64,000 nucleotides of DNA. It comes from Octopus vulgaris (lineage: Eukaryota). Of the stretch, positions 4,100 to 63,343 are shown piece after piece. Position numbers and translations under genes: made by a program. Under the pieces are notes generated by a model. The model ran no database searches. It was given only the letters and a program-made list of their open reading frames with translations, and had not been told where the DNA came from. Every line of letters starts with the position of its first letter. Position 1 is the stretch's first letter. The stretch spans positions 53,940,001 to 54,004,000 of the forward strand of contig OX597833.1 of NCBI GenBank assembly GCA_951406725.2, read 5' to 3'.

Positions 4100-5881
4100 A
4101 TAGGATTGGTTCAATTTTGATTCCGATTTCGATTTCACTTGCCCCAACAGGTCTTTGCAAGCAAAGGGGGTTGGCATGGGTGCCTGTCGTCGGATGAGGT
4201 TTGATATCGACTTCGCTTGCCTCAACAGGTCTATGTGTGTCCAAGGGAGGAAAGGCATGCATAAGTGGGCTGGACTCACTTATCCTGCCTGGTCTTCTCA
4301 CGTACAGCATATTTCCAAAGGTCTCGGTCGGTGGTCATTTCCTCAGTGAGGCCTAAAGTTCGAAGGTCGTGCTTCACCACCTCGTCCCAGGTTTTCCTGG
4401 GTCTACCACTTCCATGGGTTCCCTCAACTGCTAGGGATTGGCACTTTTTCACACACCTATCTTCATCCATTCTCGCCACATGACCATACCAGCGCAATCG
4501 TCTCTCTTGCACACCACAACTGATGCTTATTAGGTCCAACATTTCTCTCAAGGTACTAACGCTCTGTTGAGTATGCACACTGACATTACACATCCATCGG
4601 AGAATACTGGCTTCATTCCTCGCGAGCTTACACATGTCCTCAGCAGTCACGGCCCATGTTTCACTGCCATGTAGCATGGCTGTTCGTACACATGCATCAT
4701 ACAGTCTGCCTTTTACTCTGAGCAAGAGGCCTTTAGTCACCAGCAGAGATAAGAGATCCCTAAACTTTGCCCAGGCTATTCTTACTCTAGCAGTTACACT
4801 TTCAACGCACCCACCCCCACTACTGACTTGGTCACCTAGATAACGGAAGCTATCAACTACTTCTAGTTTTTCCCCCTGGAAAGTGACAGAAATTGTTTTC
4901 TGCAGATTTTCAGAGTTTAATGCTCCCGAGCATCTGCCACATACAAAAACTATCTTCCCATTTAGCCTTCCTTTGACATTGCTGCATCTCTTATGTGTCC
5001 ATAGCTTACACTGGGTACATCTTATAGAGTTTCTACCTACACCTTTTCTACAGATCGAGCAGGGCCATCTTCCTGAAGACATTTGTGGATTGTCTACCTG
5101 CCTACTTATTAGTACTTTGGTTTTAGCTAGGTTGACTCTAAGGCCTCTCGATTCTAAACCCTCCTTCCACACCTGGAACTTCTCCTCCAGTTCTGATAGT
5201 GACTCAGCAATTAGAGCAAGGTCGTCAGCATAGAGGAGCCCCCAGGGGCAACCTGTCTTGAATTCTTCTGTTTACATGTTGCCAACCCGAACCTTACTTA
5301 CGGCATCCCTGTACATGGCTTGCACAGCCCTCACCAGTCATTCATCTATCCCTAGTTTCCTCATTGACCACCAGATAAGGGATCAGGGGGGCCCTGTCAA
5401 AGGCTTTCTCCATGTCAACGAAAGCCAGGTACAGGGGCTTATCTTTAACTAGGTATTTTTCCTGCAGCTGTCTCACCAGAAATATGGCATCAGTGGTGTT
5501 TTTCCCTGGCATGAAACCAAACTGCATCTCGTCCAAGTTGAGTCTCTCCCTAATCAGTTGGGCTATGACCCTCTCTGTAACCTTCATTACCTGATCCAAC
5601 AGCTTGATACCTCTGTAATTATTTGTATCTAGGGCATCACCTTTACCTTTGTAGCCGTTGACTAGTACGCTGCTACACCAGTCATTGGGTATGACTCCTT
5701 CGTGTATCACCTGGTTAACTATACGGGTGACTAGGTTATAGCCGACACTGCCAGATATTTTGAGCATCTCGGCAGTAATTCCTGATGGGCCTGGGGCTTT
5801 TCCTGTCTTCATGCTTCTAATTGCTTTAACTACCAAAGAATTGTCAACTCGGATGGCTGGTCCCTCTGTTGGGTTGACATT

Positions 5882-5885
<4 letters not shown>
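4100..5885 (-). mobile_element. 5'-truncated RTE-clade LINE, disrupted reverse transcriptase with embedded PHD-type finger
   Basis: ORFs 5342-5953 ([29 protein letters not shown]) and 4276-5172 (FRYLG, RRLRWYGHVARM, GRPRKTW); YADD at ~5221-5232; frameshifts and an internal deletion between the ORFs. Confidence 0.95.
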
Positions 5886-5950
<65 letters not shown>

Positions 5951-5962
5951 CATATATACATA

Positions 5963-6003
<41 letters not shown>

Positions 6004-6005
<2 letters not shown>

Positions 6006-6358
6006 TTGAGCTTTGGTGTTGGAGAAGACTTTTGCGGATTCCATGGACAGCGAGGCTCACCAATGGAGAAGTTCTGAAGCAGATAAGGCCAAAAATGTCA
6101 TTAGAAGCTGGGATCACCAAGCGTAGATTGGCACATTTCGGTCACATTATGCGGAGAAAATCGCTGGAGAAGGACATCATGCTCGAAATGGTCAGTGGCA
6201 AGAGAGGAAGAGGCTGACCAAGAACCCGCTGGCTTGACACCATCAGGAGTGATACCGGAATGGACATGGCCAGTCTGAAGAAAGCGGCCCAGGATAGAAC
6301 TGATTGGAGGACACTGATCCAACGAGTGACTGAGAGTCGACTTTGACTAAGCGGATAG
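6004..6358 (+). mobile_element. RTE/BovB-like LINE 3' fragment
   Basis: [17 protein letters not shown]...FGHIMRR...GKRGRG*PRTRWLD; in-frame stop; flanked by (TA)n. Confidence 0.9.
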
Positions 6359-6373
6359 AGAGAGATATATATG

Positions 6374-6457
<84 letters not shown>

Positions 6458-6844
6458 AATGTATATATTTTTCTGTATATTGCAAGCTGGAGCAGATTGC
6501 TGCTATTTCTAGCAGATGGGTGTTCACCCTTGAGGACGAGCACAAATAGCTCAAAACCATATTGTTTGATGGTCCCATCGTCTGCAAGAAGATGCCAGCG
6601 ATCTTCTCCCCTGCTTGCAATATATATCAGATGCAGATTGCATTGACAGCCAGCTGGGGGAGGTTCCTCCTGGGTTAAATCATTGACAAGACTGTGAAAG
6701 GCACTTGGCCAAATGGTTAGGTTGTTTGGATCATGATCATAAAATCATGGGCTCAATTTGTGAACCAGATAATACATTGTATCCTCAAGCAAAGAACAGC
6801 TGGATGCCCTTCCTAATGCCAACCACTCCATGAGTGTAGTATAT

Positions 6845-7233
6845 ACTCTCTTTACTCTTTTAATCTTTTACTTGTTTCAGTCATTTGACTGCGGCCATGC
6901 TGGAGCACCGCCTTTAGCTGAGAAAATCGACCCCGGGACTTATTCTTTGTAAGCCCAGTACTTATTCTCTCAGACTCTTTTGCCGAACCGCTAAGTGACG
7001 GGGACGTAAACACACCAGCATCAGTTGTCAAGCAATGCTAGGGGGACAAACACAGACACACAAACACACACATACATATATACAACAGGCTTCTTTCAGT
7101 TTCCGTCTACCAAATCTACTCACAAGGCATTGGTCGGCCTGGGCCTATAGCAGAAGACACTTGCCCAAGATGCCATGCAGTGGGACTGAACCCGGAACCA
7201 TGTGGTTGGTTAGCAAGCTACTTACCACACAGC
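6845..7233 (-). mobile_element. SINE family A (tRNA head, internal microsatellite, (gagtaaaa)n tail)
   Basis: A box tggctgtgtgg and B box ggttcagtccc on minus; high identity to other copies. Confidence 0.9.
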
Positions 7234-8456
7234 CAAAAATATTAACTGTTATGGTCTTTTATTTATTTGTTACAATGTAGGAAGCAACTTCTTCAAATTG
7301 TTGTTGTACACAGATTATTTTTAGCTCTATTGTACATCTCATAGGAAGTTAAATTCATCTTCTGTTGACTGCTAGAAGATTTATGTAAAAAGGAGGGAGA
7401 GAAAAAGTAAAAGAATTTACCTCTGTGTTGACAGGTAGAGGAAGGGAAATATGTGTTGTCACACAGTGACAAGCCATAAGTGAAAGCAGAAAAATAGACG
7501 TGTGCTCTTTGGGGCTGGCACACAGTGAAAGAGGTACAAAAGAGAATCTGGGTTCTGTATTTATATTTTTTCTTACTAAATTAGATGAAGCTAAACAAAG
7601 GACTTTCCATTTCCTATCTGCTTTAAGGTTACAAGTGAATTGATTTACATAAATTTTCTTAGCACAAAAGCCAAGAACAATAGGAAAGAATACAGTTCTA
7701 TATTTAAGAGATGAAGAATTATGTACCAGTTGCATACTGGGGTCAATGTAACTGACCATCTCCTTCCCCCAAATTTCAGGCTTTGTGCCTATAGTGGTAC
7801 AGATTTTTATTGTCATGAGTATTGCTGTTGTCATCACAGAGATTGTCATCATTAGACAGCACTTCTATGTGCTTCCTTGACCTGCTAGAAATAGCAGCCT
7901 AATCATTTTCAATCCATAGCTATCATCTCACATTAGAAAAGGTCACATTAGATCAGTGAATCTCAGCCCTTTTTTTTTTTTTTTCTTGTAGCAGCCCTTT
8001 TTAAGCAGTTGTTATGCCTGGCACCCACCTAAGTGATGTCTCAGGTATCACGACTATACTAGCTTAACATCTTTTTTCTGCCTTCATCTGCTGGTATCCT
8101 TCATAAATGTTTAATCATTCTCGAAGGCTTCGTTGCTTCATTTGAGAACGTTTTTTTTCACATATTAAACACAGTAACAGTTGCTCATTATTTATAGATG
8201 GAATAAATCCATATTTCAAATATTCACACGAGTATTGACTATACTTTATTTTTTCCCCACACATTCTAAATTTTTAAAAAGGTAACATACACAACAATTG
8301 TGTATATATAATTACATCACTATACAAAATATGATGGAGATTGCAATATACAAAGGAAATAAGCAAAATTGCACACCTGGAAAACACCAATCAAGACAGA
8401 AATATAACATTAAAGATGAATTACTCTTGTTCAAACACGTTTTTATCTATAATATA

Positions 8457-8858
8457 TACTCTTTACTCTCTTTTACTCTTTTACTTGTTTCAGTCATTTG
8501 ACTGCAGCCATGCTGGAGCACCGCCTTTAGTCGAGCAAATCGACCCCAGGACTTATTCTTTGTAAGCCCAGTACTTATCCTATCGGTCTCTTTTGCCGAA
8601 CCGCTAAGTGACGGGGACGTAAACACACCAGCATCGGTTGTCAAGCAATGCTAGGGGGACAAACACAGACACACACACTTATATATATATATATACGACA
8701 GGCTTCTTTCAGTTTCCGTCTACCAAATCCACTCACAAGGCATTGGTCGGCCCGGGGCTATAGTAGAAGACACTTGCCCAAGATGCCATGCAGTGGGACT
8801 GAACCCGGAACCATGTGGTTGGTTAGCAAGCTACTTACCACACAGCCCCTCCTGTGCC
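8457..8858 (-). mobile_element. SINE family A, full length
   Basis: Same structure as 6845-7233. Confidence 0.9.
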
Positions 8859-9285
8859 TATATTTATCTCTCATTTTATTTTTATAGCCATAACTAGTTT
8901 TATCATGTATAATATGATTACTACAATAGGTAAAATTTAATATGTTGATTGCGTTACTTCATTGTCTCCTCATCATCCCTGAAAGTCTAATTCTACCTTT
9001 GACATGCCCAGTGCCCCCACCCCCTGGGGGCAACACCACCTGATTTAGATACTGTGTAGTGTGATGGATGAAGAGGACAACAGAAGGAGAAGGGGAAAGA
9101 AATACAAACAGGCCTTACCTCGGCGATGATCAGAGGTCTCTTACAAATTCGACACCTCCTGTCGCTTCCTCGTCTATGCTCGAACTGCCCGCTTCCTCGA
9201 TCACCACACATGCGTCCCGCTTGACCGCTTCCGCTTCCCCCCGGCACATGCGCCCTCCAGTCTTCCACCGGCCCCTGCAAGCCCT

Positions 9286-9535
9286 CATCATCATCATCAT
9301 TGTTTGACCGTGGTCGAGACAATGGAATTTACCATGCTACGCCAGACTTCACGGTCCATCATAGCATTACAGAGGTCCTGTTGCTGGATGCCTGTATCCC
9401 TGGAGATTACATCAGGGTTGGAGAGTGTGCGCCCTCTGGTATTGCGAGCAGATGGCTTCCAGAGGAGAAGAGTAGAAATTGCCTCGTTTTCAGCTCTACA
9501 ACAATGTCCAGCAAACTGGACTCTCCTACCTACTT
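9286..9535 (-). mobile_element. RTE-like LINE 3' end with (TGA)n tail
   Basis: RRVQFAGHCCRAENE...LLLWKP...AMMDREVWR. Confidence 0.8.
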
Positions 9536-9629
9536 CTGCCCACCTCATTTGTCGTCCTCTCCACCGACACCACAAGCTCCCATAACACCGACTGCCAACA
9601 TCACATACTGAAATCCTACATATCCACTG

Positions 9630-9860
9630 TGAAGGCATATGGTTTAGTGATCAGGGTATTCACCTCACGATTGTAAGGGCATGAGTTCAATCCCCAGAAA
9701 CGTGCTGTGTCCTTGAGCAAGACATTTTATTTCCTGTTGCTCCAGACCACTCAGCTGGCGAAAATGAGTAGTACCCTATAGTTCAAAGGGGCCAGCCTTG
9801 TCACATTCTGTGTCATGCTGAATCTCCCTGAGAACTACATTAAGGGTACATGTATCTATG
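9630..9860 (+). mobile_element. SINE family C-related, degenerate
   Basis: tRNA-like head plus ccttgagcaagac and cactcagctggc...aaaatgagta. Confidence 0.7.
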
Positions 9861-10199
9861 AGGTTGTTTGACCAGCTAGAATTAGCCACCAGATTTATTT
9901 CAGATCACTTCCTACTATCTGAAAAGAGAAGGACATGCTGGGTAAAATGGTTCTTTGTTTGCAGTACTTAGGAAAGAGACTATGATGGTCACAGCTGCAA
10001 TGGTTTCAATTTAAGGATGACCTAGAACTTAACAATTCACCACAAGGCCCAGTTCTTGTGGTCTGGTGGTTTGTGTGTCTCAATACACAATGATGAGAGC
10101 TATGCAAGCAGAGTATAAGATCCTGGTATGGGCCTCCCATGTTGGACAGATAAAAAGATATAGGCCAGACTAATATGGAATGCCTCTTCCCAGAGGTAA

Positions 10200-10443
10200 A
10201 AATGGGTTTGTATAGGGCCAACACCCCTCTCTAGGTAAAAAGCAAAGTTACAGAAGCATAGAGGACAATTCAAAACTAACAACACCTGGAAAAGGACAGC
10301 CTTCCCCCCAGGAAACATGATGCATTGAAGCAAATTCCAAACGGAAAAACAGGGATCCAGCTGGAGAGAAGATAGTCCAGAATTAAGAATGCTGGAGAAA
10401 TGTTGTCAATGGCCTATGCTCCACAAGGAGTGAAGGGCTTAGG
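10200..10443 (+). mobile_element. Degenerate RTE LINE 3' end
   Basis: ...ECWRNVVNGLCSTRSEGL-type C-terminus with frameshifts. Confidence 0.55.
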
Positions 10444-10455
10444 TAAACACTAAAC

Positions 10456-11104
10456 CAGGCCTGGCCAACTCAAATTACATTGCGGGCCACTTTAATCACA
10501 GAAAGTTTTTTGAGGGCCGCTTGTATACTTTATGCACTAATAGTTAAATAGTCGTAAAGTATACTAGCCATCTCAATATGGCTAACCACTAGGGGTGGGT
10601 GTTACTGTAGCTTTTTAGCCCCAGGAGATCATCGTCTCCAGCTGGCTTTAGACACAATTCCTGTGCTCTTATGATATTTGCAAAGGGATTACAGAATCAA
10701 GATTTTCTATACTTTTCGTTTGTTTAAAATTATAAGATTGTAGGTTATTGTTTTATTGCCAGTTATAAGTTTTAAAAGATAGCAAAAAAGATGTTCAGTT
10801 AATACTTGCAAAGTACATTTGTGTGCTATGAGAATAGAGCACTGCTGACCCAATTGAAAGCATTTTGCTTTCTCATGCTGTTATTACAATAATGAATGAA
10901 TGATCATTGGTTCAACATGAAATTTTATACTTGCAAAAACAGTTGCATCTTTCTTTTTCACTTTTCATTACAATCTTTAATTTTCAATAAAATTTTTAAA
11001 ATGTCTGTTTAAATAAACCTATTTCAAGAAAGTATCAAGCAGGCCCCAAGATAAAAGTTTGCAGGCTGCATGCATCCTGGCAGGTCTCAGGTTGGCTAAC
11101 CCTG
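10456..11104. mobile_element. hAT-type MITE
   Basis: Imperfect TIRs CAGGCCTGGCCAAC / GTTGGCTAACCCTG; 8-bp TSD CACTAAAC (10448-10455; 11368-11375 beyond a later SINE insertion). Confidence 0.8.
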
Positions 11105-11111
11105 CACTAAA

Positions 11112-11360
11112 AAAATAAATAAATGCGCCCTTTTAAAGCCTAGCCAGGCTCATGGGCCTGATTTCCCGGTTTCTATGGCGTATGTGTTCCCTAGCTGGAC
11201 AGGACGCCAGTCCATCACAGCGTTACTCATTTTTGCCAGCTGAGTGGACTGGAGCAATGTGAAATGAAGTGTTTTGCTCAAGAACACAATACATCACCCA
11301 GTCCAGGAATCGAAACCACAATCTTACGATCACCCTAACCACTAAGCCACACGCCTTCAC
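11112..11360 (-). mobile_element. SINE family C with 14-bp TSD
   Basis: aaccctgcactaaa at 11098-11111 and 11361-11374. Confidence 0.85.
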
Positions 11361-11539
11361 AACCCTGCACTAAACAATAGCAAATTCTTTTAATCTTTTA
11401 ATCCAATCAACATCCATGCAGCAACACTTCTTTCAAGGATTTTAGTTGGTTATATTGATCCCAACACATTTTTCAGTTTGGTACTTATTGTATTGATCTC
11501 TATTTATTGAACAGCTAAGTTATTCCTATTAGATTTTTT

Positions 11540-12000
11540 TTTCAATTCAATTCAATTTTTATTGGCTCAAAAAGCAAAAGCAATGCCATGTAGGGGGACA
11601 TGGAGTTATGTACAGGGAGGGTGATCATACAAAGAGTTCAGGCCATTTCTGGTCAAGAGGGACTTTGAACCGAGTGGTCATCGGCATCTTCACTATCTCG
11701 TCCGGCAGCTTATTCCACGGATCTGCAACCCGGACGGAGAAAGCCCCTCTCCTTCGATTGAGATGAAATCATCGTAGATAGAGCTTTTCGGAGTGAACCT
11801 GCAGCCGACGCTCTGGAGCAGGAGTGAAGAACAGCTCTTTCAAGAGGTTACACTTTCCGCTTATGATGTTGTGAGCGAGAATGAGATCACCACGGCAGCG
11901 TCGTTTTTCAAGAGAATAAAGGTCGAGCGTCTTCAGCCCTTCTTCATAAGACAAATGCTTGAGACCAAGAACCATGCAGGTAGCCAGCTTCTGGACTCTA
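11540..12000 (-). mobile_element. CR1-like LINE 3' fragment
   Basis: GLKHLSYEEGLKTLDLYSLEKRRCRGDLI...FSVRVADPWNKLP; short (ttcaa)n tail. Confidence 0.85.
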
Positions 12001-12284
12001 GATGTAAAGGAATGTAAATTGGTGCAGCCATTTAAACCAGTTTACATGGACATACATACATACATGAATCAATGAAGGAATCACAATATGGTTGCATGAT
12101 TTGTTAGAAATAGCAGCTAAATTTCCCTTAAATTGCACCAGCCATCTTAGAAATGGATTCATTGGATAATATAGTCTTGGATTTCTTTTACATGAAAAAA
12201 AAAAGAAACATATAGGTCACAGATGGTTTGTCTTTGATTATAGGTCTGCTCAATATTGACAAAAGTGGGGTTAAACAATGCTTT

Positions 12285-13140
12285 CAAATTCCGGCACAAG
12301 GCCAGCAAGTTTAAGGATGGGGTAAGATCGATTTCATTACCCTCAGTGCTCAGCTGGTATACCTATTCTATCAACCCCGAAAGGATGAAAAGCAAAGTTG
12401 ACCTCAGTGGAATTTGAACTCAGAACGTAAAGATGGATGAAATACTGTTAAGCTTTTTGCTTGCTGTGCTAACAATTCTGCCAACTCATTAACTTATCTG
12501 GTGTCAAATAATCCTTTTTACTAAAGGCACAGGGCCTGAAAATTTGGGGGAGAGGACTAGCCGATAACATCAACCCCAGTGTGTTACTGGTACTTAATTT
12601 ATCAACCCTGAAAGGATGAAAGGCAAAGTCAACCTAAGTGGAATTTGAACTCAGAACATAGAGACGGGTGAAATACTTATTTCTTTACTACCCACAAGGG
12701 GCCAAACACAGAGAGGACAAACAGATTAAGTCAATTTTATCAACCCCAGTGCGTAACTGGTACTTATTTATTTGACCCCGAAAGGATGAAAGGCAAAGTC
12801 GACCTCTGCGGAATTTGAACTCAGAACGTAGCAGCAGACGAAATACTGCTAAGCATTTCACCAGGTGTGCTAATAATTTTTGCCAGCTCGCTACCTTAAT
12901 CTGATGCCAAATAATCCTTTCTACTATAGGCACAAGGCCTGGAATTTGAGGGGAGAGGGAGGCCAGTCAATTTGATCAACTCCACTATGCAATTGGTACT
13001 TAAGTTATCAACTCCGAAAGGATGAAAGGCAAAGTTGACCTCGGCAGAATTTGAACTCAGAACGTAAAGACAGACGAAATACGCCTAAGTATTTGGCCCA
13101 GAGTGCTAACACTTCTGCCAGCTTGTCGCCTTAATCTGAT
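12285..13140 (-). mobile_element. Cluster of SINE family B copies (gttctgagttcaaattcc...gcctttcatcctttcggggtcgat)
   Basis: Four partial to full copies on minus. Confidence 0.85.
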
Positions 13141-50829: not shown

Positions 50830-51658
50830 TACTTCAATTAGGTACTTAAATTGAAGCACCAAGCCAGTTTGGTATAGTCCGTGCACATATATATATATTT
50901 ACACACATACACACACACACACATACATGATGATGATGATCATCATCACATCCATTTTCCTTTTTGCCGTGCTGGTATGGATTAGACATTTTAACAAGAG
51001 CTGGCTAGTCAGAGAGCTGCACCAGGCTCCAGTTGTATATTTTGCCATGGTTTCTACAGCTGGATGCCCTTCATAATGCCAACCACTTTACAGAGTATAC
51101 TGAGTGTTTTTTACTTGGCAGAAGCAGCAATGCTTTGTGTGTGACACTGAAATAGGTGCTTAACTCATAGCATCAGCACAGGTGCTTTCTACACGGCACC
51201 AGCACAGGTGGTTTTTTATGTAGCACAAGTAGAAATTGATATTAATCAATTAAAACCAATGGCTTAGCTTGTTTTTAAAAAATCCGAAGGTTAAAAATTG
51301 TTTTACATACAAAATTTAGAGGACTGACCACTGAAAGTGGACAGCCTATATGCTAAACATAGATGTCTAATCGCCATTACCACGAAGAATGTGTTCTCAA
51401 GAAAAATCTCGGCAAAAAACCAAAATGTAAAAATAATATCAATTTCTACCCTTATTTAATTTTAAATAAAAAATGTTCTCCAACTGGTAAATTGACTGCT
51501 GTAGTTTATTAACTGCAGAGTAGTTTCCGATCTCAGTGCGCCAAAGTGAAGAAATTTAAAAGATAAACCTAAATATAATTTCTAGAACTTTATACATGCT
51601 GGATTTCGGTTGAGTGTTCTGTATCATGTTCTAGAAATTGTGTTTTATAAACGACAGA

Positions 51659-51731
51659 CTATGCTGATGATCTTGCAGATGTTTGCATGTCCATATATGT
51701 AAATATTAACAAGTGAAACCAATGGTACATA
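51659..51731 (+). ncRNA. Type I hammerhead ribozyme
   Basis: tatg CTGATGA [stem II cttg..atgtttgcat/atgtaaatat..caag] GAAA cca a tgg TA cata; intact core, predicted cleavage after GUA at 51727. Confidence 0.7.
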
Positions 51732-51952
51732 CTCTTACTCTTTTACTATTTTACTTGTTTCAGTCATTTGACTGCAGCCATGCTGGAGCACCGCCTTTAG
51801 TCAAGCAAATTGACCCCGGGACTTATTCTTTGTAAGCCCAGTACTTATTCTATCGGTCTCTTTTGCCGAACTGCTAAGTGACGGGGATGTAAACACACCA
51901 GCATCGGTTGTCAAGCAATGGTAGGGGGAGAAACACAGACACACAAACACAG

Positions 51953-52005
<53 letters not shown>

Positions 52006-52122
52006 TATATACGACAGGCTTCTTTCAGTTTCCGTCTACCAAATCCACTCACAAGGCATTGGTCGGCCCGGGGCTATAGCAGAAGACACTTGCCCAAGAT
52101 GCCACGCAGTGGGGAACTGAAC
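51732..52122 (-). mobile_element. 5'-truncated SINE A flanked by a 46-bp duplication
   Basis: 51686-51731 and 52123-52168 differ at 2 positions. Confidence 0.9.
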
Positions 52123-52965
52123 CATGTCCATGTACGTAAATATTAACAAGTGAAACCAATGGTACATAGGTAATCGCTTTTTATTTCGTATATTTTCATT
52201 TGTCTTGCTTATTTTCACATTTTGGTTTTTCACTGAGATTTTTCTTGAGAACACGTTCTTCTTGGTAATGGCGATTTGACGTCTATGTTTAGCATATAGG
52301 CTGTCCACTTTTAGTGGTCAGTCCTCTAAATTTTGTATGTAAAACAATTTTTAATCTTTGGATTTTTTAAAGATAAGCTAAGCCACTGGTTTTAATTGAT
52401 TAATATCAATTTCTACCCTTATTTAATTCTATATATCATCATCATCATCATCATTGTTTAGCGTCCGCTTTCCATGCTGGCATGGGTTGGACGGTTCAAC
52501 TGGGGTCTGGGAAGCCAGAAGGCTGCAACAGGCCCAGTCTGATCTGGCAATGTTTCTACGGCTGGATGCCCTTCCTAACGCCAACCACTCCATGAGTGTA
52601 GTGGGTGCTTTTTATGTGCCACTGGCACAGGTGCCAGGCGAGGCTGGCAACGACCACGATCGGATGGTGCTTTTTACGTGCCACTGGCACTGGTATCACA
52701 GCTACAATTTCCATTGATGTTGATCGATTATATATATATATATATTATAATATATTATTATTAATATCAGGAATTCAATATTAGAAAATTCTTCAGAAAA
52801 ATATATACGTGTGCAAAATAATTGTTGTATTAAAAATATAAATATATATAAATATATATGTAAATATGTATAAGTATAAATATATGATATATATATAACA
52901 GCTTAAAAGTTTTGAATTATGTTTTTAAAGCATCTTACTATCATTTCACGGAAGTGCTTTCCCTA

Positions 52966-53586
52966 TAATGGAATCCTATATTGATAAACATTTATAGACA
53001 ACTCTTCTGCTCTTCAGAGATATAAAATTTGAAATTTGTATAATTTATCGAATGGTAGTTTTTTAAAAAATATGAAGTAATATGATAAAATGGTGTTTGT
53101 TTGAAATATAAATTATAAATTAAAAATTACTGCTTTTGATTTTGTTAAGTACACTTTTGCATGAGAGTCTTTAAATCCATATATGCTTCCTTGGTAATTC
53201 TTCTGAAATAATCCACAATAGTTATGTGTAAAATCCATTATATTGTCCTGTATTCCAAATATAGTCCACAGACTTAGATAATATAGAATAATGGAATCCT
53301 ACATTGATAAGCATTTATAGATAACTCTTCTGCTCCTCAGAAATATCAAATGTGAAATTTGTATAAGTTAACGAATGGTAGTTTTTTAAAAAAATTATGA
53401 AGTAATATGGGAAAATGGTGCTTGTTTGAAATACAAATTAAAAATTACTGCTTTTGATTTTGGTAAGTATACTTTAGTAAGAGAATCTTGAAATTCATAT
53501 ATGCCTCCTTGGTAATTCTTCTGTAGTAATCCATAATAATTATGTATAAAATCCATTATATTGTCCTGTATTCCAAATATAGTTCA
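52966..53586. repeat. ~323-bp tandem duplication followed by an inverted segment to 53657
   Basis: taatggaatccta at 52966 and 53289. Confidence 0.9.
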
Positions 53587-53730
53587 AATATAAGATTCCA
53601 TTATTCTATATTATCTAACTCCATGAACTATATTTGGAATACAGGGCAATATAATGGCACGAGAACACTTGCTCATACAAGCATCCACAAAAATGTGAGC
53701 ATATGCACACATGAGGTTTGGTGCACTCAC

Positions 53731-61843: not shown

Positions 61844-61889
<46 letters not shown>

Positions 61890-61890
<1 letters not shown>

Positions 61891-62047
61891 TTTATTTAAA
61901 AGCAGCAGAAATTCAACAAAACCTGTTACACGGAGTTTCACGTTCCCGTTCATCAGACAGTTTTGCTAGGGTTAGGGTGAGGGTCGAACGGGAACGTGAA
62001 ACTCCGTGTAACAGGTTTTGTTGAATTTCTGCTGCTTTTAAATAAAG
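61890..62047. repeat. Perfect 62-bp inverted repeat with telomere-like loop
   Basis: 61890-61951 is the exact reverse complement of 61986-62047; loop contains tagggttagggtgaggg. Confidence 0.97.
61918..61964 (-). ncRNA. Minimal type I hammerhead ribozyme
   Basis: aaaactgt CTGATGA acg ggaa cgt GAAAC tccgt GTA acaggtttt. Confidence 0.72.
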
Positions 62048-62116
62048 CATATTACTCTACCCCTGGTATTTGAGTACTCTTTTTTCCACCTTGTTTCACA
62101 TTTATGTGTTTACTCC

Positions 62117-62153
<37 letters not shown>

Positions 62154-63343
62154 CAGGCTTCTTTCAGTTTCCATCTACCGAATCCACTCACAAAGCTTTG
62201 CTCAGCCTGAAGCTAAAGCAGAAGACACTTGTCCAGGGTGCCATGCACTGGGACTGAACCTGGAACCATGTGCTTGAGAAGCAAGCTTCTTCCCACTCAT
62301 CCATATCTGTACCTATATCATCATCATCCTCATCATCATCATCATCATCATCTCAATGAATCAATCGTAGTAATACCATTCATATATTTTTATTATGTTT
62401 TTTATGCTATGCTTAAAGTACCATTCACTGCTGAAAAACTTTTGGGTAATATTGGAATCGCAGTTTACCTAACAACAGTGATCTCCTTTCATCAATACCT
62501 TTTGTACAATGATAATTGATTACTTAAGTGTCTGCTTTGTGTGATTCTGTCTAGCCAATTACTGGCATGCTTCACTTTGATATGCCTTGGTCCTTTATGG
62601 AACCCTTGTAATTGAAACTCTGTGTGTGTGTGTGTCTGTGTATGTGTGTGTGTGTGTGTTAAATTACATAATGTGTGTGTGTGTGTGTTTGTGTTTGTCC
62701 CCCATCAATGAATGACAATAATTGTTGATTTGGTTACGTTCCTGTAACTTAGCTATTCAGAGAGAATAAGCGTCAGGATTTAAAAACGTCTTTGATTTGT
62801 TTGTATTCTGATTAGAAATTTCACTTGTTAATTATCTGTTGATTAGTTAACAAGTCATTGTTCACCTGTTCACCCGAGTGCCTGATGAGTTGGGACTTAT
62901 GAAAAATTATGCAATTTAACTAATTGTATTATGCTTCAAGACAGTGCTCTAGCACTGAAGCAAGTAGACTAAATGACTGATGGAAGTAAAACACAAAACA
63001 ATCCATAATCCAATGAAGAACCGAGACAAACTATAAAATGCATAATTTACAAAGAATGCTTTATTTAATATTACAAAAATAGGGATTGAGAAAATATTCT
63101 CAAATAAACTATTCTGAAAAAAATCTATTTTTCTATTAGTTTCTTCAATGATCTCACTGAACTTCTCGATTGGAAAGTTACCAAGTGCAAACTGATCAAA
63201 ATGAAAAATCCATAATCCATAGATTGGTTTTAAGTTTACCAAAGATCATTCAATCAACCAAAATATTTGGACAAAATGTGTAGACTATATATATTTAATT
63301 ATGAAGATTTCATTCAAGATTATTTATACTGTGAAACCATAAA

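Follow-up and report, generated by a model that had tools for sequence, protein, structure and literature searches.

A hammerhead-bearing repeat unit in Octopus vulgaris, interrupted by a SINE, as a likely non-autonomous Penelope-like element

The window analysed here is a 64,000-nt stretch of Octopus vulgaris DNA (contig OX597833.1). It contains a non-coding repeat unit that is 530 nt long once 437 bp (a 391-bp SINE and a 46-bp duplication) are subtracted (Table 1). The first-pass annotation had defined a unit of this length by a 25-bp direct repeat, and this is borne out by the recomputed length and by identical 25-mers at 51437 and 52404; the match widens to 35 nt at 94% from 51434. It had also described ~208 bp of the 3' part as copied inverted in front, and indeed 51229-51436 and 52209-52416 differ at 14 of 208 positions (93% identity). 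The layout is a truncated inverted arm, a 3-nt microhomology, one unit, and 25–35 nt extra. The locus holds ~1.05 units and is not a tandem of two or more hammerhead-bearing units. The forward copy ends at 52428-35, 12–19 nt past the end of the arm at 52416, and no target-site duplication is seen around the whole insertion on inspection by eye. Compared with what appears to be the family majority, ~6–8 of 208 sites differ in each of the two, the arm and the forward copy, as would fit a single insertion and later neutral decay. On either side of the element lies a copy of one interspersed repeat headed by (CAT)n (50936-51228 and 52435-52730), one copy old and the other young, and at least six more copies of it occur in the window. 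ARAGORN finds no tRNA gene in the window.

Table 1 Features of the element, with positions in the window
Feature	Position	Strand	Basis or remark
Inverted arm, a 5'-truncated repeat of the unit's 3' part that faces the forward copy head-to-head	51229-51436	-	Corresponds to 52209-52416, without the last 12–19 nt of the tail; repeat alignment
3-nt microhomology at the inversion junction, common to the arm end and the direct-repeat start	51434-51436		Overlapping repeat alignments
Terminal direct repeat, copy 1	51437-51461	+	Extends to 51468 at 94%
Non-coding 5' body	51462-51648	+	Order recurs in diverged contigs; no Pfam match
Predicted body hairpins	51486-51528, 51571-51645	+	Fold prediction; predicted long-range pairing with 52199-52253
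Stem I, 5' strand	51649-51663	+	CTATG at 51659-63; predicted extension at 51652-54 beyond a 4x4 internal loop
Hammerhead core CUGAUGA	51664-51670	+	Read directly; 0 variant rows among the 40 of 106 listed
Stem II, 17 bp (4+13) with 2x2 internal loop, closed by U10.1·U11.1	51671-51714	+	Fold prediction
Distal part of stem II, varies between copies	51674-51699	+	10 of the 40 variant rows listed (of 106)
SINE target duplication, left copy	51686-51731	+	
GAAA, palindromic stem III, GUA	51715-51727	+	GAAA at 51715-18, palindrome ACCAATGGT at 51718-26, GTA at 51725-27; predicted cut after 51727
Antisense SINE, later insertion, with internal (TA)n	51732-52122	-	391 bp; compared with 8 copies at the ends
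SINE target duplication, right copy (second hammerhead 3' half)	52123-52168	+	First 5 nt common to the SINE
Stem I, 3' strand in the SINE-free allele	52165-52176	+	CATAG at 52165-69, extension at 52174-76; 7 contigs of run X3
3' part of the unit, non-coding, pLTR-like end	52169-52416	+	No Pfam match
Terminal direct repeat, copy 2 (tail), then TA remnant	52404-52435	+	Repeat search; contigs into (TA)n

The 437 bp inside the unit, annotated earlier as a SINE plus duplication, resolve into a 391-bp antisense SINE and the 46-bp duplication. The SINE is 5'-truncated, with ~31–36 nt of its own 5' end absent, and at least 11 further SINE copies of 300 bp or more lie in the window. The two copies of the duplication differ at 2 of 46 positions. 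Because the SINE and its target share a 5-nt microhomology, the duplication measures 41–46 bp. Seven contigs of run X3 (among the loose ends listed) pass from 51731 straight into the sequence of 52169, and two contigs of run X1 (among the joints listed) join 51731 to the opposite-strand arm. Therefore, the SINE-free allele is real. The stem I pairing of CTATG with CATAG that had been proposed for the pre-insertion allele holds, with both strands in place and SINE-free contigs at hand. In the seven X3 contigs position 52177 is T, with which the predicted extension of stem I would grow from 3 to 6 bp. Since the SINE landed at stem I and duplicated the 3' half of the ribozyme, the present copy is probably inactive as a source. 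The stretch 51640-51740, earlier proposed for in vitro transcription, is this SINE-damaged allele with a 4-bp stem I. We also considered, and rejected, the SINE duplication as a working intramolecular 'half dimer' made of the left core and the right cut site: the cross-duplication fold is predicted to lie 4.3 kcal/mol above the free ensemble and is no better than the left monomer in the extant transcript.

A type I hammerhead core with three stems is predicted in the unit. The core CTGATGA, the GAAA, the palindromic stem III and the GUA site re-read at the coordinates given by the first-pass annotation, and the long bulged stem II that it described folds as 4+13 bp with a 2x2 internal loop (z -4.2; 0 of 200 shuffles equally stable). 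Stem III would consist of 3 bp and a 3-nt loop in the monomer and of 4+4 bp in a dimer. The palindromic positions 15.2-16.2 and loop 3 are present, and the self-duplex is predicted at -8.2 kcal/mol with a central A·A. Stem II opens with a mismatch, U·U in place of G-C (51671·51714), a detail absent from the earlier annotation. The unit thereby departs from the consensus of minimal PLE (Penelope-like element) hammerheads, which has an extra nucleotide after A9 and then G10.1-C11.1, the latter pair as given in the accessible part of PMC4209133; counting the first U as the extra base gives C·U instead of U·U (51671/2·51714). A natural stem II that starts with U10.1·U11.1 is described in the available text of PMC3088659, where it keeps activity and is the most active mismatch.

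A strict three-stem descriptor, composed after the motif had been seen, matches only 51664 in the 64 kb and has no match in 150 dinucleotide shuffles. A looser descriptor matches 51664 and 61956, with 0.013 matches per shuffle, and for a loose core pattern the expectation is 0.38 occurrences per window. Rfam gives no hammerhead match at the gathering threshold or up to E=10 in a scan of the extant, SINE-split allele. The match at 61956 is the core of a second, unrelated minimal hammerhead element on the minus strand (61870-62120), with a short stem II, a palindromic stem III, a long inverted arm, a spacer of telomere-like CCCTAA repeats and (TA)n on both sides; as another hammerhead-plus-inverted-arm element in the window, it is counted in favour of the PLE reading developed below. 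Elsewhere, a 318-bp unit is repeated in tandem at 52965-53657 (1.9 copies) and has an inverted arm of 71 nt; the unit alone is not structured. One copy forms a three-way junction with a U3-A8-type core (53304) and GAAA (53354); the motif at 53304 is doubtful as a hammerhead because position 17 is G and the core is preceded by an additional base. On the minus strand at 62790-62870, a 9-bp perfect hairpin is followed by GAAA and has 14 nt in common with the end of the hammerhead stem II, with no CUGANGA core.

In a SINE-free fragment of 101 nt, the hammerhead with its 5-bp stem I and extension is a minimum-free-energy (MFE) fold (-20.0 kcal/mol, 1.6 above the free ensemble), and monomer stem III contributes 1.6 kcal/mol. 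Therefore, dependence on dimers is doubtful as far as predicted folds go, and dimers should help. In a 114-nt fragment the hammerhead lies 1.8 kcal/mol above the MFE, an alternative hairpin sequestering the core, and the MFE fold of the whole unit sequesters the hammerhead. A similar exception, with the hammerhead blocked in the predicted fold, is described for mussel retrozyme circles in the accessible text of Cervera & de la Peña 2020 (PMC7229834). For frog retrozymes, the available part of a preprint reports eight of nine predicted dimers as uncleaved in vitro (bioRxiv 10.64898/2026.07.22.740005). The dimer cleavage of minimal PLE hammerheads is reviewed in PMC6765202.

The unit as a whole is strongly self-paired in prediction, with z-scores, rough at 20–30 shuffles each, of -7.0 in linear genomic order, -8.5 linear from the cut site, and -7.2 and -10.1 in two circular runs; the minus strand gives -3.9 to -4.4. 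Among composition-matched controls (18 of 27 candidates), 17 of 18 have z of at least -3.7 and one has -7.4; this outlier is explained by a 71-nt inverted repeat, its repeat unit scoring +1.2 on its own. A noisier control set (12 windows, 8 shuffles) spans +4.2 to -5.1. The GC content is 30.8%. None of 12 read-through frames matches Pfam, the longest stop-free frame is 73 aa, and these 12 frames contain no ORF for a PLE reverse transcriptase (RT) and GIY-YIG endonuclease. The unit is thus predicted to be a low-GC, short, highly self-paired non-coding monomer, as non-LTR retrozymes are.

The unit belongs to a large, multi-copy, diverged family. Parts of 51229-51731 are contained in 20 of the 24 listed runs (9 studies, 4 coded organism labels), none of which contains half of the sampled words from that stretch. 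At 80% likeness, contigs of 4 of the 24 listed runs are placed on 51190-51770; the family evidence comes from the contigs of three large runs, two guessed to be DNA and one unlabelled, and runs with small shares beyond the four carry no weight here. Each large run places 7,900–11,900 contigs, a large part of which belongs to the SINE end, so that distinct contigs per site are more telling than this total: run X1 has at least 106 contigs with one arm variant and 68 with one stem II variant. Contigs with 26–37 other letters span 51435-51610, 51455-51658, 51438-51654, 51583-51728 and 51571-51728. Thus, the tail, the body and the hammerhead are colinear in diverged copies. Contigs that pass from the tail into (TA)n number at least 36 in run X3 and at least 17 in run X4 (24 of 722 loose-end rows listed). 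There is no head-to-tail joint among the 15 of 53 joints listed, and none of the 32 contig pieces listed covers the whole stretch; contigs cannot distinguish a tail from a tandem repeat. Just behind 51470, near an ATG, four X1 contigs diverge (agreement 0.7), which may mark another subfamily, or perhaps the point at which a partner element begins. Among the listed runs that contain parts of the stretch, none is labelled as RNA. Two contigs of run X11 lie over the hammerhead; its status as RNA is a guess, and it is weighed neither way. Exact-pattern scans of metagenome and viral contigs return 0 loci. Nine exact-pattern loci in prokaryote genomes are rejected as chance matches, none extending beyond 24 nt. 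A hammerhead family in octopus or other cephalopods is undescribed in the literature searched, itself seen in part and excluding most subscription papers and Repbase, and the word 'ribozyme' occurs 0 times in the accessible text of the Octopus vulgaris repeat paper.

The ribozyme appears to match the family majority at its core. The variant table lists 40 of 106 rows, with a lowest best-run share among them of ~0.41; the other rows are presumably minority variants. Among the 40 listed, none falls in 51648-51673 or 51700-51731, which together make 58 nt and comprise stem I, the core, proximal stem II, GAAA, stem III and the cut site, while 15 fall in the 178-nt body and 10 in distal stem II. 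Since proximal stem II has no variant rows, the U·U is probably the family majority. Calculated by hand, zero differences in 58 nt has p ~0.01 at the body rate (14 majority differences in 178) and p ~0.1 at the arm rate (8 in 208). These comparisons lend moderate support to the ribozyme being conserved better than the body. When 28 majority differences are set against the predicted fold, some improve pairing and many break it; two-sided changes can be CpG decay, and the check is limited by hidden rows and uncovered partner positions. Of the conservation that had been looked for among copies, the part that concerns the 58 nt of core and stems is moderately supported, and the pairing check is mixed.

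We consider it likely that the unit is a non-autonomous Penelope-like element, that is, an animal non-LTR retrozyme monomer, for which the RT and endonuclease of an autonomous PLE are the likely mover and which was later interrupted by the SINE. The first-pass annotation had proposed a non-autonomous Penelope-like retroelement with a hammerhead, and both the anatomy and the family contigs support this well. The unit shows three hallmarks of a PLE derivative: an inverted 5'-truncated arm at the 5' end, terminal redundancy with a one-sided tail, and a bias to AT-rich or microsatellite DNA, with tails running into (TA)n in the contigs (24 of 722 loose-end rows listed). For PLE insertions, the available portions of PMC8557442 and PMC3846280 describe a 5'-truncated copy in inverted orientation at the 5' end and, at one of the two ends, a tail. 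In vitro, as given in the accessible part of PMC11167929, a Poseidon PLE makes nicks in AT-rich DNA and initiates cDNA at two internal positions, the distance between which is the tail. This insertion plan and the in vitro data, taken together, suggest trans-mobilisation by a PLE enzyme. The same source presents the Poseidon hammerhead as protein-assisted and dispensable for insertion, PAc hammerhead mutants still inserting in vitro. No autonomous PLE partner is found in the window, where the only RT is LINE-like (30 of 91 ORFs scanned): at 4276-6097, on the minus strand, broken reverse transcriptase frames are followed by a PHD-like finger, a LINE-like arrangement not shown to be a PLE.

The terminal redundancy of 25–35 nt points to a template of more than unit length, in line with the multimeric RNA suggested earlier. 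A source locus would give rise to such an RNA, with a tandem transcript as the favoured form and a ligated circle as a somewhat less probable one; by analogy with PMC11167929, in the part available, a linear tandem transcript would explain the tail equally well as a circle. The hammerhead is predicted to cut this RNA after GUA once per unit. AT-rich or (TA)n DNA would then be nicked by a PLE enzyme, with cDNA synthesis beginning within the RNA ~250–270 nt downstream of the cut site; two start points close together would be available, and use of both would account for the forward copy ending 12–19 nt beyond the arm, as an optional tail. Synthesis would cover one unit plus 25–35 nt, and a second cDNA, truncated to 208 nt, would be joined head-to-head via the 3-nt microhomology. 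Later, the SINE would have landed at stem I and duplicated the 3' half of the ribozyme.

The class (animal non-LTR retrozymes or non-autonomous PLEs) and its architecture are already published. Retrozymes were presented in 2020 as low-GC hammerhead repeats of 150–450 bp, expressed as circles, also in mussel, with PLEs as their likely movers (PMC7229834, accessible text). Li, Clavereau & Pollet 2026 add, in the part of their preprint available, families of 51–972 bp, dispersed monomers and kinship with pLTRs (bioRxiv 10.64898/2026.07.22.740005). The unit resembles animal non-LTR retrozymes in being non-coding, with GC below 45–50%, a type I hammerhead and high predicted self-pairing, and likewise in that movement by PLEs has been proposed and dispersed monomers are known for them. 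At 530 nt it is longer than the retrozymes of 2020 and falls inside the range of the 2026 preprint, and in contrast to retrozymes it has ~1.05 units instead of a tandem of at least two hammerheads, as well as a 17-bp stem II with a basal U·U. Under the strict definition, which asks for both such a tandem and circular RNA, the unit is a candidate retrozyme.

With endonuclease-bearing PLEs (Penelope/Poseidon, Neptune; Pen2a_Av, PMC3846280, and PAc, PMC11167929, in the text available of each) the unit shares the head-to-head arrangement at the 5' end, where the inverted copy is 5'-truncated, as well as redundant termini with a tail on one side only, a hammerhead upstream of the 3' end, and AT-rich or microsatellite targets. 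Unlike them, it has ~190 nt of non-coding body in place of the RT/GIY-YIG ORF, a tail overhang beyond the arm of 12–19 nt compared with the usual 30–40, and no target duplication that can be seen. Its hammerhead is like the minimal PLE hammerheads of Cervera & de la Peña 2014 (PMC4209133, accessible part) in being type I, with a 5-bp proximal stem I, a long stem II and a palindromic stem III. It differs from them in the absence of G10.1-C11.1, in a longer stem III (3 bp and a 3-nt loop), in a stem II of about twice the length, and in a stem I that is predicted to continue beyond an internal loop, a trait of canonical type I motifs.

The closest competing account sees in the 530-nt unit what deletion or truncation has left of a longer autonomous PLE, with an ORF between the tail and the hammerhead, the depth then representing mostly solo pLTR ends. 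The summed depth, which is not copy number, counts in its favour: up to ~90,000 in the 3' part (X1), 22,000–59,000 over the hammerhead, and 5,000–13,000 in the body. The four X1 contigs that diverge behind 51470 would fit as well, and PLE insertions are mostly 5'-truncated in the accessible portions of PMC8557442 and bioRxiv 10.64898/2026.07.22.740005. However, contigs with 26–37 other letters in 146–217 nt keep the order of tail, body and hammerhead in three runs; therefore, the short form is old and multi-copy. The depth also dips where the present copy diverges, and the 12 frames carry no protein remnant. We regard this account as improbable.

Still less probable is spread by an agent other than a PLE, such as a LINE or duplication at the DNA level, in which case the hammerhead would be an inherited and now non-functional relic. 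The window does hold a LINE-like RT and many SINEs, and the U·U at 10.1·11.1, the lack of an Rfam match and the full-unit fold that sequesters the hammerhead could all be read as signs of a relic. However, the head-to-head arm with an optional tail is a PLE signature, the unit has neither poly(A) nor a SINE-type tail, and the core agrees with the family majority where the body does not (40 of 106 variant rows listed). It is scarcely credible that chance produced the hammerhead motif in a repeat rich in AT and in hairpins, even with a descriptor drawn up after the fact and a loose core that should turn up by chance in a good share of such windows. The strict descriptor never matches in the shuffles; only the SINE-free allele, present in other copies, has a complete and extended stem I; and the motif sits within PLE-type anatomy, where type I hammerheads are expected.

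A non-autonomous Penelope-like element moved by PLE enzymes remains the preferred reading, and its overall gain is incremental. A bolder one, which we hold to be unlikely, is that the family is an active high-copy retrozyme whose source loci yield an abundant, rod-like circular RNA of ~530 nt; the hammerhead variant that cuts it would function as a monomer and have a 17-bp, U·U-closed stem II. If it were true, dispersed copies with an inverted arm, a tail and a (TA)n target would offer direct evidence, from anatomy, for the copying of retrozyme RNA by PLE enzymes. In the literature consulted, the link between PLEs and retrozymes has been argued from co-occurrence, shared features and phylogeny. 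With its long stem II closed by U·U, the unit adds to the natural variants of the hammerhead, and the large family allows RT start sites to be mapped and a circular template to be tested against a linear multimer. Movement of animal retrozymes by PLEs is proposed, not proven, and the anatomy of the 530-nt unit supports the link.
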